Positions 1,051-26,028 of a stretch of DNA of 29,619 bases are shown in pieces. The translations under genes were made by a program, and so were the position numbers. Every line of letters starts with the position of its first letter. The stretch's first letter is position 1. The stretch is from Bacillota bacterium (lineage in GTDB: Bacteria > Bacillota > Clostridia > Clostridiales > Clostridiaceae): positions 1 through 29,619 of the forward strand of contig JAUZPH010000001.1 in the NCBI GenBank assembly GCA_030706065.1, given 5' to 3'. Below the pieces are notes generated by a model. That model made no database searches. It was not told where the DNA came from and saw only the letters and a program-made list of their open reading frames with translations.

Positions 1051-1150
1051 CAGATACGGAAATTTAAACCTTTAGTATTCACCTGAGAAAATAGCGAATC
1101 TTCAACGATTTTTCGAAGGCGATAGATTAAGATATAAATTTCCGCAGCTA
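1051..1150 (-). repeat. ~100-bp nested-palindrome repeat, subfamily 1, copy C
   Basis: 87/97 identical to the reverse complement of 18910-19006. Terminal IR CGGAAATTTA/TAAATTTCCG, core hairpin at 1087-1114, TA on both flanks (1049-50, 1151-52). Confidence 0.9.
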
Positions 1151-1238
1151 TAAATGATTATATAAAAATTATATACGAAGAATTAGGAGAAAAGTTCGAA
1201 AGATATTCAAAAAAGTTACCAAATATGGATACTTTTTA

Positions 1239-1267
1239 TTGACTTTTTAATTTGTACAAACTATAAT
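1239..1267 (+). promoter_or_regulatory. SigA promoter of the riboswitch-NlpC/P60 unit
   Basis: TTGACT (1239-44), 17-nt spacer, TATAAT (1262-67), directly upstream of the aptamer. Confidence 0.85.
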
Positions 1268-1273
1268 TTTAGG

Positions 1274-1395
1274 TGAGCTGAATCCCCGTAGGGGGTACGG
1301 AGGAACCAATTATTGGGGTTAATCTGATTTGGACAAGATGTCCAGGCCAGTAGGGTAACCTTCACCCGAACCCGTCAGCTAACTCCGGAAGCGAA
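1274..1395 (+). promoter_or_regulatory. Cyclic di-AMP (ydaO/yuaA) riboswitch
   Basis: Hallmark segments GCTGAATCC, TACGGAGGAACC, TTGGGGTTAATC and CCCGAACCCGTCAGCTAACTCCG, upstream of a cell-wall hydrolase, the usual context for this class. Confidence 0.93.
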
Positions 1396-1407
1396 AGGAG
1401 GGTTTTT

Positions 1408-2034
1408 ATGAAAACTTTTAGAGGAAAAGTGCTATCTGCAGGTGTATTCGTTTTCGCGTTATGCATAGGCATGCATTTTGGCGGAAAAACTGTTAAGGCA
1501 GATACTGTAGGTGGTACCCAGGAAGGTGTAGTTATCAAGACGGCAACGGTTTCGACTAAAAAGGTAATTAAAATTCCCCAGAAAGAGGTCGTAACTACTG
1601 AGTCCACAAAAACTTCCACAAAGAGCTCTTCAAGAGGATTAAGTGGGGGAACTGCCATTGCAAATGGAAGCACCAGTGACGTTGTTCAGTATGCATTTCA
1701 GTTCTTAGGAAAGCCTTATGTATATGGAGGTACCGGTCCAAAAGCCTTTGATTGTTCAGGCTTTACTTCCTATGTATACCACCATTTCGGGGTGGAATTA
1801 CCCCGTACAGCGGCAGATCAATCCTCTGTTGGTGCAGCAGTTTCAAAAAGTGAGTTAAGGCCAGGGGACCTGTTATTCTTTAATACTCGTGGGTATATAT
1901 CTCATGCGGCATTATACATTGGAGACGGTCAATTTATTCATGCAGCAAATGAACAGAGTGGTGTAACAATCAGCAATCTCAGTACAGGATATTATGAAAA
2001 GACATATGTTGGAGCTAGAAGAATAATGAGATAG
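1408..2034 (+). CDS. Secreted NlpC/P60 (C40) peptidoglycan endopeptidase
   Basis: Signal peptide, Thr/Ser/Lys-rich linker, catalytic motifs YVYGG..FDCSG and SHAALY..FIHA. Confidence 0.92.
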   Translation: MKTFRGKVLSAGVFVFALCIGMHFGGKTVKADTVGGTQEGVVIKTATVSTKKVIKIPQKEVVTTESTKTSTKSSSRGLSGGTAIANGSTSDVVQYAFQFLGKPYVYGGTGPKAFDCSGFTSYVYHHFGVELPRTAADQSSVGAAVSKSELRPGDLLFFNTRGYISHAALYIGDGQFIHAANEQSGVTISNLSTGYYEKTYVGARRIMR

Positions 2035-2049
2035 TACCAACTAAAACTA

Positions 2050-2076
2050 CCCGGCAAAGTTTGTCGGGTTTTTTTT
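2050..2076 (+). terminator. Intrinsic terminator
   Basis: CCCGGCAA/TTGTCGGG stem followed by 8 T. Confidence 0.85.
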
Positions 2077-2185
2077 ATTCTAAATTATCACCTCTATCAA
2101 TACATATGGTATTGGAAAGGGTCTTTTTATACAGCGCATAAGCCGCTGTGAGATTATCCTTCCGATAAAGATGTGAGGTGATAAG

Positions 2186-2911
2186 ATGAAATACACAAGA
2201 TATGATTTCAGGAGAAGAAAAGAAGAAAAGATTTCAGTAGCGGTTATATTTATAAGCATAATCCTGGCAGCAGTCCTGCTGGGAACGGCATTGTCCAGTT
2301 TGTTCATTAAGGGTCAATCCGGTAAGGCAGATTCCGGACAGAAAAGCGGCAGTGGAACAAAATCCTCTTCACAAAACGGTACGGATTCGGAAGCAGGAGC
2401 AGTTCCGTTAAAATTCCTGATTATCCAGGGTGGCAACTTTACTAATGAGAGCTATGCCATGACTTTAAAGGAAAGCCTGAAAGCGATTGTTAATCCGTTC
2501 TCCGTGAAGGAGGAGGATGGGAAAACAAGGGTACTAGCCGGAATTTTTAACGAGGATGAATATGAGGCAGCACTAAAGAAGCTTACTGATAAAAGCCTGG
2601 ATAACAGCAAGATGACCTATGAGATAAATATTGAAGATCAGTCCTGTCTGGAGATTGAGGAGATAATAAGAGCCCATTTGAGGTGCCTTACCCCTCTTAC
2701 AGAGCAGAATACCATATCTGTAAAGACAGATGATATCAAAAAGTGGCTTCCTACTCTTCCGGCAGTGAAGGAAAACAGCAAACACTTCAAGGAGCTTGAA
2801 GCTTACAAGACATATATAAGTTCTCTACCTGCAGAAATTGGAAAAGATAAAGTAGAGGAAAATTACATATATATTTACAATCTGCTCAAAAAGGTCGGAA
2901 CAAAGATATAA
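2186..2911 (+). CDS. Membrane-anchored hypothetical protein, possibly SPOR-like
   Basis: RBS GTGAGGTG, basic N-terminus, one TM helix, Gly/Ser linker, and a segment IIQGGNFTNESYA reminiscent of SPOR repeats. Function uncertain. Confidence 0.6.
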   Translation: MKYTRYDFRRRKEEKISVAVIFISIILAAVLLGTALSSLFIKGQSGKADSGQKSGSGTKSSSQNGTDSEAGAVPLKFLIIQGGNFTNESYAMTLKESLKAIVNPFSVKEEDGKTRVLAGIFNEDEYEAALKKLTDKSLDNSKMTYEINIEDQSCLEIEEIIRAHLRCLTPLTEQNTISVKTDDIKKWLPTLPAVKENSKHFKELEAYKTYISSLPAEIGKDKVEENYIYIYNLLKKVGTKI

Positions 2912-2923
2912 GGAAAAGCATGC

Positions 2924-23797: not shown

Positions 23798-23799
23798 TC

Positions 23800-24141
23800 A
23801 TGATTAAAATTGTTTTTGGGCAGAGATGTGGTAAACAGGTTTCCTATCATATAAGCGGCCATGCCGAATATGTGGAAGGTGACGAGAATGTCTATGATGA
23901 TGTGATATGCGGTGTTGTTTCAAATTTAGGGCAGGTTGCCATTTTAGGGGTGACAGAAGTTCTTGGATTGGATGCACCATATGTCGCGGAAGATGGAGAT
24001 ATAAGCCTAGATATATCCAGACTTAACTGTGAAGATATTGAGAAGTGTCAGACACTTCTTGAGACAGTGCTTCTTGGTCTCCAAAATTTAGAGATAAGCT
24101 ATAGTGAATATATAAATGTATTGGTAGAGGAGGTGCAGTGA
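23800..24141 (+). CDS. prp: Ribosomal-processing cysteine protease Prp (YsxB)
   Basis: SGHAEY and DVICG His/Cys dyad, located between rplU and rpmA. Confidence 0.9.
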
Positions 24142-24142
24142 T

Positions 24143-24445
24143 ATGCTAATAATCAACCTTCAGTTATGTGCTCATAAAAAAGGAGTAGGTAGCTCAAGAA
24201 ACGGTAGAGACAGTGAATCCAAGAGATTAGGCGTTAAGTCCGCTGACGGACAGTTCGTACTAGCTGGAAACATATTGGTTAGACAGAGAGGTACAAAGAT
24301 ACATCCTGGAACTAACGTAGGTATAGGAAGCGATGATACACTTTATGCCAAGGCAGACGGAGTTGTAAGATTCGAAAGACTTGGAAGAGACAAGAAAAAG
24401 GCAAGTGTATATCCTGTAGATGTTGAAGAAGTAGTAGCAGAATAA
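24143..24445 (+). CDS. rpmA: 50S ribosomal protein L27 with N-terminal pro-peptide
   Basis: [21 protein letters not shown], preceded by MLIINLQLC. Confidence 0.98.
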
Positions 24446-24450
24446 TTAAG

Positions 24451-24473
24451 GCACCCGTCAGGGTGCTTTTTTT
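24451..24473 (+). terminator. Intrinsic terminator after rpmA
   Basis: GCACCC-GTCA-GGGTGC followed by 7 T. Confidence 0.9.
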
Positions 24474-24517
24474 AAACTGAAGGATAAGCTGCGTATTCAA
24501 AAGAAATTTTACGTACC

Positions 24518-24551
24518 AGGCGATAAATTAAGAAATAAATTTTCGCTTCTA
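24518..24551 (-). repeat. Single-arm fragment of repeat subfamily 1, copy G
   Basis: 24518-24555 matches 1117-1154 at 33/38 and ends in CTA|TA. Confidence 0.75.
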
Positions 24552-24654
24552 TAAAAAAGGTTTATATTATATAAATATCGACAAATAATATAGTATATAA
24601 TCCCTTATGGCAGAAGGCTGCCTGGATTAGAATACTTGATTGAGGATGATGAAT

Positions 24655-25926
24655 ATGTTTATTGATACCGCAAAAGTTTTTGTAAAATCAGGTGACGGAG
24701 GCAACGGTTCCATATCCTTCCGCAGGGAAAAGTATATCCCGCTTGGCGGGCCAGACGGCGGCGATGGAGGAAAAGGCGGAGATGTGATTTTGGTTGCAGA
24801 TCCCAATATGACAACACTACTGGACTTTTCATACAATAAGAAGTTTATCGCTGAGAGAGGCGGCAACGGGTCTGGTTCCAAGTGTTACGGAAAAGATGGA
24901 GAGAAACTGTACATAAAGGTTCCTATGGGAACCATAGTCAAAGATTTGGAAACGAGTAAGATAATGGCTGACCTGTCCCATCCTGAAGACCAGTATGTGG
25001 TTTGCAGAGGCGGCAAAGGCGGCAAGGGAAATGCCAAATTTGCAACTCCTACAAGGCAGGCGCCTGATTTTGCCGAACCGGGGATGCCCGGAGAAGAAAG
25101 ATGGATCACACTGGAACTCAAGCTGCTGGCAGATGTGGGGCTTCTGGGCTTCCCCAATGTCGGCAAGTCTACTCTGCTTTCCGTAGTTTCAAAGGCACGG
25201 CCCAAAATAGCGAATTATCATTTCACTACCTTAAAGCCCAATCTGGGTGTGACAAGTGTAGGAGATACCAGCTTTGTCATTGCGGATATACCGGGGATAA
25301 TCGAGGGCGCGGCAGAGGGTGTCGGGCTGGGGCTGGATTTTTTGAGGCACATCGAGAGAACAAGGATACTGATCCATGTGGTGGATATATCCGGTGTGGA
25401 AGGAAGAGACCCTTTTGAGGACTTCATGAAAATAAATGAGGAACTTAAAAAGTACAGTGTCAAGCTTTGGGATAGGCCGCAGATAGTGGCTGCAAATAAA
25501 AGTGATATGCTGTATGATGACGATGTATTTGAAAATTTTAAGAACAAGCTGAAGGAATTGGGCTATGACAGGATATACAAGATATCTGCCGCCAGCCGCC
25601 AGGGAGTGGATGACTTGATGAAGGCCGCAGCCGAGCTCTTAAGTACAATCCCGATAACTGAGCTTGAGATAAGTGAAGCGGAGTGGTTTGTTCCTGAGGA
25701 GAAACACTTCACTTATACTATCAGGGAAGAAGAAGGAATATTTATTATTGAGGGAAGCTTTGTTGACAGGCTTCTTATGGCAGTAAATGTAAATGACCCC
25801 GACTCACTGAAGTATTTCCACAAGGTTTTAAAAAACAAGGGGATATTTGATGAACTCCTGGAGATGGGGATTCAGGATGGTGATACTGTAAGATTAAATG
25901 ATTTTGAATTTGACTTTTTATTATAG
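24655..25926 (+). CDS. obgE: GTPase ObgE/CgtA
   Basis: [18 protein letters not shown] Gly-rich Obg fold, [17 protein letters not shown]-terminal OCT domain. Confidence 0.98.
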
Positions 25927-26028
25927 TGAAACATTACGTAAACTTAACTTGTGCATGTCTCAAAATAGCGAATCTTTAACGCTTTTTGAGCTTGTATAAG
26001 TTATTAGTTGAAGTTGGTTCACTAACTA
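25924..26028 (-). repeat. ~100-bp nested-palindrome repeat, subfamily 2, copy E
   Basis: Core at 25961-25988 (26/28 positions compatible with copy C in the inner 26 nt: 24/26 identical). Shares TTACG(A/T)AAACTTA and TAGTTGAAGTTGG with copy D. Its left end overlaps the obgE stop codon. Confidence 0.82.

Follow-up and report, generated by a model that had tools for sequence, protein, structure and literature searches.

A family of short, hairpin-forming repeats, represented by seven copies or fragments in a 29,619-nt window of a Clostridiaceae MAG, is mobile and has inserted at TA dinucleotides between genes. It constitutes an undescribed, new family of MITE-like hairpin elements, for which we identified no mobilising enzyme. 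As a kind of selfish DNA it is familiar; its conserved hairpin tip is unusual. The novelty that an earlier note on this DNA proposed to test was borne out, as no match to the element was found in Rfam, in plasmid and phage records or in the literature. At gathering score, Rfam 15 matched the window only at a 6S RNA and a c-di-AMP riboswitch, and a search at E up to 10 returned only sub-threshold eukaryotic miRNA-precursor noise in the element region.

The source genome, a fragmented 4.24-Mb assembly from an uncultured relative of Clostridium (88% complete, 715 contigs, none under 1.5 kb), holds ~570 repeat loci that make up 46 kb, or 1.1% of the assembly. A looser count gave 444 distinct cores. 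A stricter paired-core search (any 4-bp stem, loop NTNAAGNTT, outer A/T stem) yielded 313 genomic copies and none in the reversed genome, and the exact 28-mer core of copies A and B occurs 116 times. The seven copies in 30 kb that were first reported are real, but understate the family. Cores are intergenic in 98% of cases, in a genome that is ~83% coding, and their spread across spacer types tracks spacer length.

Copies within the window

Alignment and sequence reading confirmed all seven copies at the positions and in the orientations first described, with one change of boundary (fragment G, below). The loop strand is the forward strand in A, B and D and the reverse strand in C, E, F and G, and no copy contains an ORF of 80 aa or more. 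Covariance model R1, trained without any window copy, found E, A, B and C at full length on the loop strand with 39–51 bits. Folded as ssDNA, A, B, C, D and E reached −27.2, −15.6, −13.4, −32.3 and −15.2 kcal/mol, with z-scores against dinucleotide shuffles of −9.4, −4.0, −3.1, −8.1 and −3.2, respectively; F and G folded no better than dinucleotide shuffles because they are fragments. The TA flanks proposed earlier were present at C, D, E and the A+B pair, as were the CA/CA flanks of F. The left tip of B has been lost.

Copy C (1051–1150, reverse strand) is a full-length member of arm subfamily S1, with arms of the TAGATGCGGAAATTTA type. Its neighbours are a 174-aa ORF and the c-di-AMP riboswitch. 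TA flanks it at 1049–1050 and 1151–1152, its R1 score is 39.3 bits, and the congener G001 lacks it at the orthologous site. C matches B in inverted orientation with 88% identity over 107 nt, and A with 73% identity over 102 nt. A (18806–18904, forward strand; full-length, S2-like) and B (18909–19007, forward strand; S1) together occupy the apex of a terminator hairpin after a spoIVFB-like gene, with terminator arms CCTCTGCA (18790–18797) and TGCAGAGG (19012–19019) and then a T run; at this site the congener has an intact terminator hairpin and no insert. TA flanks the pair at 18804–18805 and at 19008–19009, the latter being the right-hand TA of B. A scored 44.7 bits on the forward strand against 21.8 on the reverse, and B, which is absent in the congener, scored 42.5 bits. 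Compared with the consensus of 130 full-length S1 copies, B carries TTGC in place of TAGA at its left tip. The core hairpin of A (18842–18869, forward strand) reads GAAAA-ATCG-GTGAAGATT-CGAT-A-TTTTC, and an identical core is found in B (18944–18971).

Copy D (19102–19262, forward strand) is a composite S5a element of arms, accessory module and core. The accessory hairpin module of ~57 nt (GGGTGTAAAATTTC...GAAATTTTACACCC) spans 19142–19198 and the core 19200–19226, and the whole folds into a three-way junction from which the module branches off to the side; the same module is found at the same position in S1–S4 copies. Only 8 nt separate the end of D from the ribosome-binding site of an RNase E/G-like gene, and D is absent in the congener. 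Adjoining it on the left is an extra fragment (about 19064–19101; GATACCC...CAACTTTAGCATGGGGATATC TA), which by its resemblance to F can be placed tentatively in S5, as a putative minimal remnant; the whole stretch 19054–19268 is missing in the congener. F itself (15280–15324, reverse strand) is a minimal, core-less S5 derivative of ~45 nt that retains the outer stem and the AACTTCAACTA motif, directly upstream of the ribosome-binding site of a rodA-like gene. Over 35 nt it matches the left arm of D in inverted orientation (89%), and minimal forms resembling it are also found elsewhere in the genome (C186, C204 and C174).

Fragment G, previously placed at 24518–24551, spans about 24490–24553 (reverse strand), between the rpmA terminator and obg. 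It represents the left-hand ~64 nt of a composite S1 element that has been truncated, covering the S1 arm and the beginning of the accessory module, and agrees with the 188-nt composite consensus (cluster 6). E (25924–26028, reverse strand; full-length, S5b-type) has entered the obg stop codon at its TA, with the stop TAG retained at 25924–25926, and scores 51.4 bits with R1 (E-value 1.5e-8).

Architecture, covariation and decay

At least five arm subfamilies (S1–S5) were distinguished, with unrelated arm sequences. Common to them are TA-flanked tips (TA-T-AGA...), a rod length of 93–100 nt and one apical hairpin, and each folds to −38 to −43 kcal/mol. S1 has terminal inverted repeats TAGATGCGGAAATTTA / TAAATTTCCGCATCT and each other subfamily its own equivalent; between subfamilies, terminal identity amounts to only about 4–5 bases, and the element ends are symmetric to the last base. 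The sole module common to all subfamilies is the apical core hairpin, with constant loop GTGAAGATT and a bulged A; the latter is present in 307 of 313 cores, and seven perfectly paired stem types occur. Copies fall into size classes of about 45–53, 93–100, ~148 and ~188 nt, and core-less derivatives retain both tips. Chimeric copies with non-complementary arms also exist, which indicates that pairing is not needed for persistence.

The hairpin is supported by covariation. In alignment A2 the share of paired cells is 93.8%; shuffles give 84.7% (0/500), and sliding the partners lowers it to 35–47%. The score is 0.289 versus 0.131, and 12 pairs change on both sides. Single copies with compensatory changes were also seen in C. 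rhizosphaerae. In palindromes, arm covariation would be trivial if both ends had to bind the same protein, an explanation that accounts for the tips and leaves the core stems unexplained.

Once in place, copies are not maintained, and their decay is neutral. Singleton substitutions are flat along the element (0.5–1.3 per site, loop 1.0), and one-sided changes break pairs in 170 cases and keep them in 40. By contrast, the core is avoided by variants shared between copies, and pairing survives in 35 of 48 two-sided changes. The constraint therefore acts on propagation and not on resident copies.

Target site, past spread and range

G001, the only known congener, lacks 11 of 12 full copies at the orthologous sites, and the one copy that it shares is degraded. 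At two junctions (E and C46:11767) the empty site has a single TA and the filled site a TA on each side, and the clean junction reads GGCAAG-TA-ATGGAGG when empty and GGTAGA-TA-[element]-TA-TTGGAGG when filled. The ~115 nt of E are missing in the congener, in Clostridium sp. N3C and in UBA3947, all of which read TTATAG-TT...GGAGG. Empty orthologous sites with a single TA, as sought in the earlier note, are present in the congener and two further Clostridium genomes; for E, two outgroups fix the direction of change. These sites and the hundreds of further copies bear out the non-autonomous, MITE-like mobile family first proposed. Each flank taken singly carries TA in about 90% of cases, 188 of 283 copies have it at both ends, and insertion prefers TA in a TATA-like context. 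Because no two copies are identical (mean identity to the consensus 92%), mobility here refers to past spread. A TA on each side could also arise without true duplication, if an element carrying one TA inserts beside another.

The family is restricted to a few Clostridiaceae, mostly with 1–20 copies each; the well-assembled C. rhizosphaerae genome has 20 loci. For the source genome, a Clostridiaceae MAG, the description as clostridial holds only at family level. Related species belonging to a different genus have copies at orthologous positions, and one short transcript contig of a soil metatranscriptome carries a copy. Core orientation is near balance relative to flanking genes (94:125) and weakly biased relative to the G-rich strand (181:227, with genes at 2556:597), both counts resting on crude gene calls and a crude leading-strand proxy.

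Mobilisation and relation to known elements

The explanation we favour, as somewhat better than even, is a non-autonomous, non-coding MITE-like hairpin mini-transposon whose enzyme, supplied in trans, reads the folded form at least partly. It inserts at TA in AT-rich intergenic DNA, leaving TA on each side, with occasional hits on a stop codon or within a terminator loop, and it went through a large burst in the MAG lineage after the split from the congener. The features needed for spread would be those common to all subfamilies, namely the extreme tips, an apical hairpin with the invariant loop and bulged A, and a rod-like fold of constant length with ~35 nt on each side of the centre. As no mobilising enzyme was found, we infer the mechanism from these shared features: folding may be needed, a single enzyme may recognise an extruded hairpin or cruciform at least in part, and not through long sequence-specific terminal repeats, and the insertion step would be double-stranded.

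A classical MITE moved by an IS630/Tc1-mariner-type DDE transposase, its gene lost or absent from the fragmented assembly, seems doubtful, though several observations fit it: the single TA of empty sites and paired TA of filled ones, the TATA-like context, the symmetric tips, the lack of strong strand bias and the deletion derivatives that retain tips. An IS of ~1.2 kb could also be missing, since the incomplete MAG holds nothing under 1.5 kb. Against this, PF13358 (DDE_3) had no matches in six carriers (G000, G001, G185, G200, G145 and G224), the MAG and five others, which include assemblies 96–100% complete in 20–60 contigs, and the curated NCBIfam IS630 model NF033545 gave nothing above cut-off in G000, G001, G185, G145 and G200. 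No two termini were found at a spacing of IS length, the sequence behind solo termini had no interior in common, and no cognate autonomous IS was seen among the C. rhizosphaerae loci. The conserved apical hairpin with its covarying stems would be left unexplained, and with so few terminal bases shared between subfamilies one sequence-specific transposase would be insufficient and at least five would be needed. The mobilising enzyme is no recognisable IS630/Tc1 transposase, and the parentage suggested by the earlier note was not upheld. IS1595 genes are present and do not fit as mobiliser.

Alternatively, the repeats could be REPIN-like hairpins moved as ssDNA by RAYT-like Y1 (HUH) tyrosine transposases. 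Enzymes of this kind read hairpins, which would account for stems that covary around unpaired bases that stay constant, and the genome does encode six Y1_Tnp paralogs of ~310 aa whose best NCBIfam match is 'REP-associated tyrosine transposase'. The TAG in the tips is also reminiscent of the GTAG that REPs carry. We nevertheless regard this as unlikely: the six genes score 60 bits against an 80-bit RAYT equivalog cut-off, have another inverted repeat (GGGACGGTTC...GAACCGTCCC), not the hairpin element, at their flanks, and have counterparts of the same type and size in four of five related genomes without the element, and their number is unrelated to element copy number. The near balance of replication-strand orientation and the symmetric ends also speak against it. 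Nor was the IS200/IS605 parentage raised earlier supported: palindrome-associated elements of that type have TnpA (small Y1) and/or TnpB, asymmetric ends and a replication-tied strand bias, whereas the genome has no TnpB gene, the element ends are symmetric, orientation is 181:227 relative to the G-rich strand, and the Y1 genes carry a different flanking repeat and also occur in non-carriers. It is very improbable that the repeats serve the host as a structured RNA or regulatory hairpin (a terminator, an mRNA stabiliser or a binding site for RNase or protein) that selection maintains at every locus to which it has been copied. The strong fold, covariation and conserved loop are compatible with such a role, as are the copies just upstream of ribosome-binding sites or in terminators, those at orthologous positions in another genus and the one on the soil transcript contig. 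However, private substitutions hit loop and stems as often as any other position and in most cases disrupt pairing, so purifying selection does not act on individual copies; gene-relative orientation is near balance, distribution follows spacer length, the congener lacks 11 of 12 copies beside conserved housekeeping genes, and no Rfam family matches.

Compared with known systems, the elements share with MITEs a small size (under ~300 bp), lack of coding capacity, terminal inverted repeats, many dispersed copies and a target-site duplication seen in filled and empty sites (E and C46:11767); a cognate autonomous IS with the same ends was not found in the incomplete assembly. Correia elements (CREE/NEMIS) of Neisseria are non-coding, TA-flanked inverted repeats of about 100–155 bp, with hundreds of mostly intergenic copies and size classes that differ by an internal ~50-bp block (PMC10969869 and general background). 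Ours are likewise small, TA-flanked and intergenic, with hundreds of copies and internal-block size classes, but have no sequence similarity to them and reside in a Gram-positive anaerobe. Correia subtypes share 26-bp terminal repeats, whereas here the arms are unrelated and an apical hairpin with covarying stems is shared. Correia elements also feature an IHF site, promoters and RNase III processing; we know of no proven transposase for them.

The pneumococcal RUP, a MITE found in a Firmicute, measures ~107 bp, is flanked by TA and forms a hairpin; it often occurs in clusters with other repeats or inside them (PMC10969869 and general background). It shares length, TA flanks and target duplication, hairpin and Firmicute host with the present family, but not sequence. 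RUP ends match IS630-Spn1, which is thought to move RUP, whereas no IS630-type gene or DDE_3 transposase was found in the six carriers here. REPINs resemble our elements as long imperfect hairpins kept by compensatory change, selfish and spread by lineage, with several families per genome. They differ in having a single-copy RAYT gene with the same flanking repeats and genomic co-occurrence, where here the RAYT-like genes carry a different flanking repeat and also occur in non-carriers, and in lacking a target duplication, where here TA stands on both sides after insertion. ERIC/IRU of enterobacteria are ~127-bp intergenic imperfect palindromes with longer and shorter variants by internal indels, likenesses that extend to this family; to our knowledge they have no known transposase. 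ERIC elements occur in few copies, for the most part fixed at orthologous sites, and are considered to function in RNA, in contrast to the hundreds of lineage-specific, neutrally decaying insertions described here, and there is no sequence similarity. Pneumococcal BOX elements, with optional internal modules between constant ends (A-Bn-C), share the modular build, but their modules are linear, while here hairpin modules are nested beside the core in a branched fold.

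Abundance and insertion at TA

Seven copies or fragments of a TA-flanked palindromic repeat (A to G) had been described in the window, and a repeat finder recovered the main pairs among them (B/C, A/C, D/E, F/D and G). B (18904-19010) is an inverted match to C (1048-1154), with 88% identity across 107 nt, and A matches C at 73% over 102 nt. Reading of the seven places confirmed their coordinates, TA flanks and orientations, with three corrections: G (24490-24553) comprises the left ~64 nt of a composite copy that is longer, the left tip is missing from B, and the window holds one more F-like remnant, at about 19064-19101. 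As single-stranded DNA, A, B, C, D and E folded far more stably than dinucleotide shuffles (z-scores of −9.4, −4.0, −3.1, −8.1 and −3.2, respectively), and the folds of fragments F and G did not rise above them. The window also carries a 6S RNA (63-253, 50.9 bits), a c-di-AMP riboswitch (1266-1407, 87.2 bits) with copy C ~115 nt upstream, and a full-length PBP2-like gene of ~950 aa duplicated in tandem (7262-10117 and 10273-13137), the pair sharing 70–81% DNA identity across most of its length at a constant offset of ~3020 nt.

The window is contig 1 of an incomplete and fragmented assembly (4.24 Mb, 715 contigs, 40% G+C, 88% complete). An Obg search placed the source genome in the Clostridiaceae, with the MAG 'Bacillota bacterium OH_CBrB_310', of the same genus, as its nearest neighbour (88% Obg identity; hereafter the congener) and Clostridium sp. 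N3C next. BLAST with the seven window copies as queries yielded ~570 merged loci, which together cover 46 kb (1.1% of the assembly). The 28-nt core shared by A and B, an apical hairpin with a loop and a bulged A, has 116 exact matches in the genome and 410 at ≤6 substitutions (reversed genome, 0). A search by structure only (any perfectly paired 4-bp stem, the loop NTNAAGNTT and an outer stem) found 313 cores, with 0 in the control, and merging both searches gave 444 distinct cores. Cores are 98% intergenic, by a crude ORF-based gene call that assigns 83% of the genome as coding. By the same crude call, cores number 219 in tandem, 78 in divergent and 40 in convergent spacers, which tracks spacer length, and 94 lie in the same orientation as flanking co-directional genes and 125 in the opposite one. 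Relative to the G-rich strand of each contig, a crude proxy for the leading strand, cores divide 181:227 and genes 2556:597.

The earlier note had proposed a non-autonomous, MITE-like mobile family and a comparison of orthologous sites; both the hundreds of copies and the empty sites now support that reading. The sites of C, of the A+B pair, of D with its adjoining remnant and of E are all empty at orthologous positions in the congener. Where the A+B pair sits in the apex of a terminator hairpin in the window, the congener carries this hairpin intact; as a general rule, hairpin-apex targeting was not significant overall, although the tail was enriched about twofold. Clostridium sp. N3C and UBA3947 lack E as well, which identifies the event as an insertion. 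Two further contigs compared with the congener added six more copies absent there, bringing the lineage-specific full copies to 11 of 12. One S2 copy (subfamilies S1 to S5 are described below) is common to both species and degraded in form, showing that the family was already active before the species split. For the congener's own copies, the flanks needed for the reverse comparison fall outside this assembly.

That the element inserts at TA is demonstrated; the cleanest of the junctions is GGCAAG-TA-ATGGAGG in the congener and GGTAGA-TA-[element]-TA-TTGGAGG in this genome. At two empty sites, those of E and of an insertion in contig C46, a single TA stands where the filled site has one on each side. 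The obg site without the insert is TTATAG-TT, and with it the TAG stop is preserved. Two insertions have hit the TA of a stop codon (window 25924-25926, and 11765-11767 of contig C46 of this genome) that is TAA or TAG in relatives, and in both the stop is retained because the element brings a G after TA. Across the genome, each side has TA at ~90%, and 188 of 283 copies have it on both; immediately outside it, T/A is favoured more weakly. The TA-TA context likewise occurs at the 20 copies in C. rhizosphaerae. The repeats alter stop codons, terminators and 5′ leaders of housekeeping genes, mark species- and strain-level differences and help explain the strong fragmentation of the assembly, and annotation should mask or model them.

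A common fold with unrelated arms

The 313 cores fall into seven stem types (ATCG 205, ATCC 66, ACTG 15, CCGG 8, ACCG 8, AGCG 4 and CCCG 4), with the loop GTGAAGATT or TTGAAGATT in 272 and the bulged A in 307. An alternative apical loop, TCCTCTT in place of GTGAAGATT, recurs on three different stem types (contigs C77, C146, C412, C534, C590 (S4), C103 (S2) and C512); its complement, AAGAGGA, resembles a ribosome-binding site. The consensus of 130 full-length B-type copies, TAT/AGATGCGG...CCGCATCT/KTA, has sharp edges and unconserved flanks.

Clustering of the arms separated several subfamilies, between which arm sequences are unrelated: S1 (TAGATGCGGAAATTTA; copies B and C), S2 (TAGATGTGTGAGTTTA; copy A), S3 (TAGAACCCAAAAAGTC), S4 (TAGAAAGTGAAAATCT) and S5, with GATATCC or GGGAAAC then AACTTCAACTA on the left and TTAAGTTTWCGTAA on the right (copies D, E and F). 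Base forms of all subfamilies measure 93–100 nt and fold as a single rod of −38 to −43 kcal/mol, made up of outer stem, internal loop, inner stem and core. Longer classes of ~148 and ~188 nt contain an accessory hairpin, GTAAAATTTC...GAAATTTTAC, which in every subfamily lies directly 5′ of the core; in the longest class a second core lies within it, and in D it is predicted to fold as a side branch at a three-way junction. Minimal core-less variants, of which F is one, retain both tips. In chimeras (S2/S1, S1/S2 and S4/S2; contigs C12, C29, C133, C216, C281 and C513), a left arm from one subfamily meets a right arm from another at the core, which suggests template switching or recombination at this common segment.

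Covariation was assessed in a MAFFT alignment of 19 copies (S3/S4 and other genera) that was not fitted to any structure. Double compensatory changes affect 10 of the 22 predicted pairs of the consensus rod; at the tips of palindromes, arm covariation arises for trivial reasons. Over the full rod of 33 pairs, 93.8% of paired cells were complementary against 84.7% in shuffles, and the covariation score was 0.289 against 0.131 (0 of 500 shuffles reached the observed value in either case); sliding the partners by 1–3 columns reduced these measures to 35–47% and ≤0.052. A covariance model built from this alignment, which includes neither the window copies nor S1, S2 or S5 arms, matched E (51.4 bits), A (44.7), B (42.5) and C (39.3) over their full length, each on the loop strand, and the core part only of D (22.9 bits), with no further window match below E = 0.01 (E-values are rough). 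Recovery of E, A, B and C by a model without S1, S2 or S5 arms indicates one architecture common to the subfamilies. A MAFFT alignment across mixed subfamilies recovered only the core, as arms without sequence similarity misalign, and a register analysis without gaps was blurred by composite copies.

Decay of resident copies and proposed recognition of the fold

Substitutions were analysed in 59 equal-length S1 copies, which average 92% identity to their consensus and include no identical pair. Private substitutions are evenly spread at 0.5–1.3 per site (apical loop, 1.0), and one-sided changes broke a pair 170 times and kept it 40 times. Variants common to several copies, by contrast, are concentrated in the internal loops and rare in the core, and of 48 two-sided changes 35 are still paired. 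The resident copies therefore decay neutrally, and constraint on fold, core and tips acts only in lineages that yield new copies, which is the signature of a selfish mobile element and argues against a host RNA maintained at each locus. On transcription, one metatranscriptome gave a single short contig with a copy and was uninformative.

All that the subfamilies have in common is 4–5 bases at the termini, the length of the rod and the apical hairpin, so one sequence-specific transposase that binds terminal repeats cannot serve them all. We infer that the folded element is recognised by one enzyme, with double-strand-like insertion at TA. In a bolder version of this reading, such an enzyme would recognise the fold through the invariant apical loop and bulged A, measure a fixed distance of ~35 bp along the rod, tolerating accessory hairpins as side branches, and cut and join at TA. 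Arm sequences could then drift freely as long as pairing is kept, and this would account for the unrelated arms of the subfamilies. The full proposal, a structure-specified mobile element served by a single enzyme outside the searched transposase families that reads the fold, measures the rod and joins at TA, is tentative and rather unlikely in our estimation; if true, it would be a new way to define transposon ends.

The earlier note had pointed to IS630/Tc1-mariner or IS200/IS605 transposases. Neither this genome nor five further carriers searched with one or both of the Pfam DDE_3 and NCBIfam IS630 models, among them assemblies 96–100% complete in 20–60 contigs, gave anything usable, and the absence of a TnpB gene from the genome speaks against IS200/IS605. 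Six paralogous, RAYT-like Y1 transposase genes of ~310 aa (40–68% identical, below the equivalog cut-off; contigs C14, C71, C165, C234, C300 and C317, loci L336-L341) have a C-terminal ~170 aa without a Pfam match. They are flanked by another inverted repeat, GGGACGGTTC...GAACCGTCCC, often with TAG in front, whose 10-mer has 90 genomic copies against 12 in the control and forms 17 inverted pairs. Since these repeats differ from the element and Y1 genes of the same type occur in four of five non-carriers, we rejected them as the driver; they look like a separate REP/RAYT-type system. An IS1595/ISXO2-type family (13 members, 60–85% identical; contigs C209, C585, C235, C46, C521, C117, C58 and C310, loci L342-L348) was set aside because its ends, GGCAGACTAAGGCTATGTT..., are unrelated to the element and two members are themselves targets of it, with the hairpin inserted in the leader of one (C310) and splitting the ORF of another (C487). 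The motif GTCAATAATCTAAA is common to the 5′ leaders of the IS1595/ISXO2 and Y1 genes, ~30–60 nt before the start codon. The genome has one large serine recombinase gene only, its remaining multi-copy ORFs are ordinary paralogs, and solo termini revealed no long parent element. Neighbours of copies in low-copy relatives are unrelated housekeeping genes. A 316-aa ORF adjoining the copy in C. grantii seems to encode a secreted protein, without a relative in this genome.

Distribution and novelty

The core pattern occurs in 11 of 401 Clostridiaceae genomes (233 here, 14 in the congener, 20 in one other and 1–4 in each of the rest), with 0 everywhere for the backwards-pattern control. Among ~185,000 species representatives, the ATCC-type core is confined to the following: C. 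rhizosphaerae (~20 copies), OH_CBrB_310 (~12), oral taxon 876 (4), Ca. C. radicumherbarum (3), an uncultured Clostridium (3), Ca. C. stratigraminis (2), and C. grantii, Clostridium sp. N3C and one MAG (1 each). When public genomes and viral contigs were scanned with a degenerate core, the matches were mostly due to chance, the viral ones falling within coding sequence, and plasmid and phage records held no match to the element. Rfam, which the earlier note had suggested consulting, has no matching family. Neither the core sequence nor a clostridial MITE of this type was found in the literature, including a review of prokaryotic MITEs from 2024 that makes no mention of clostridia.

Bacteria commonly carry small palindromic repeats; to our knowledge, neither the enzyme that moves them nor what their fold does is known in most cases (Correia, ERIC and many REP-like families). 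The element constitutes a genuine and abundant family that had not been described before, within a known general kind, the MITE/REPIN-like palindromic repeats. What is unusual is a covarying, conserved apical hairpin across subfamilies with unrelated arms, together with no recognisable transposase. The data set is unusually clear, with hundreds of copies, dated insertions, exact empty sites and at least five subfamilies that have the same fold and tip hairpin on completely different arms, and it cleanly separates the needs of spread from later decay. As C. rhizosphaerae is cultured and carries 20 uniform copies, a hairpin-reading factor can be sought at the bench.

In another genus, the rpmA-obg spacer holds copies at orthologous positions in related species (L317 in Ca. 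C. radicumherbarum; L331 and L159 in Ca. C. stratigraminis). Fragment G (24490-24553) lies in the same spacer and belongs to a different subfamily; the spacer may be an insertion hot spot, or this may be coincidence. At one locus in a further genome of another genus (L326, genome G066), an S1-type core without the usual arms sits between direct repeats of a different hairpin, TGCAATTCTCTTGAACTTAGAATTGCA.
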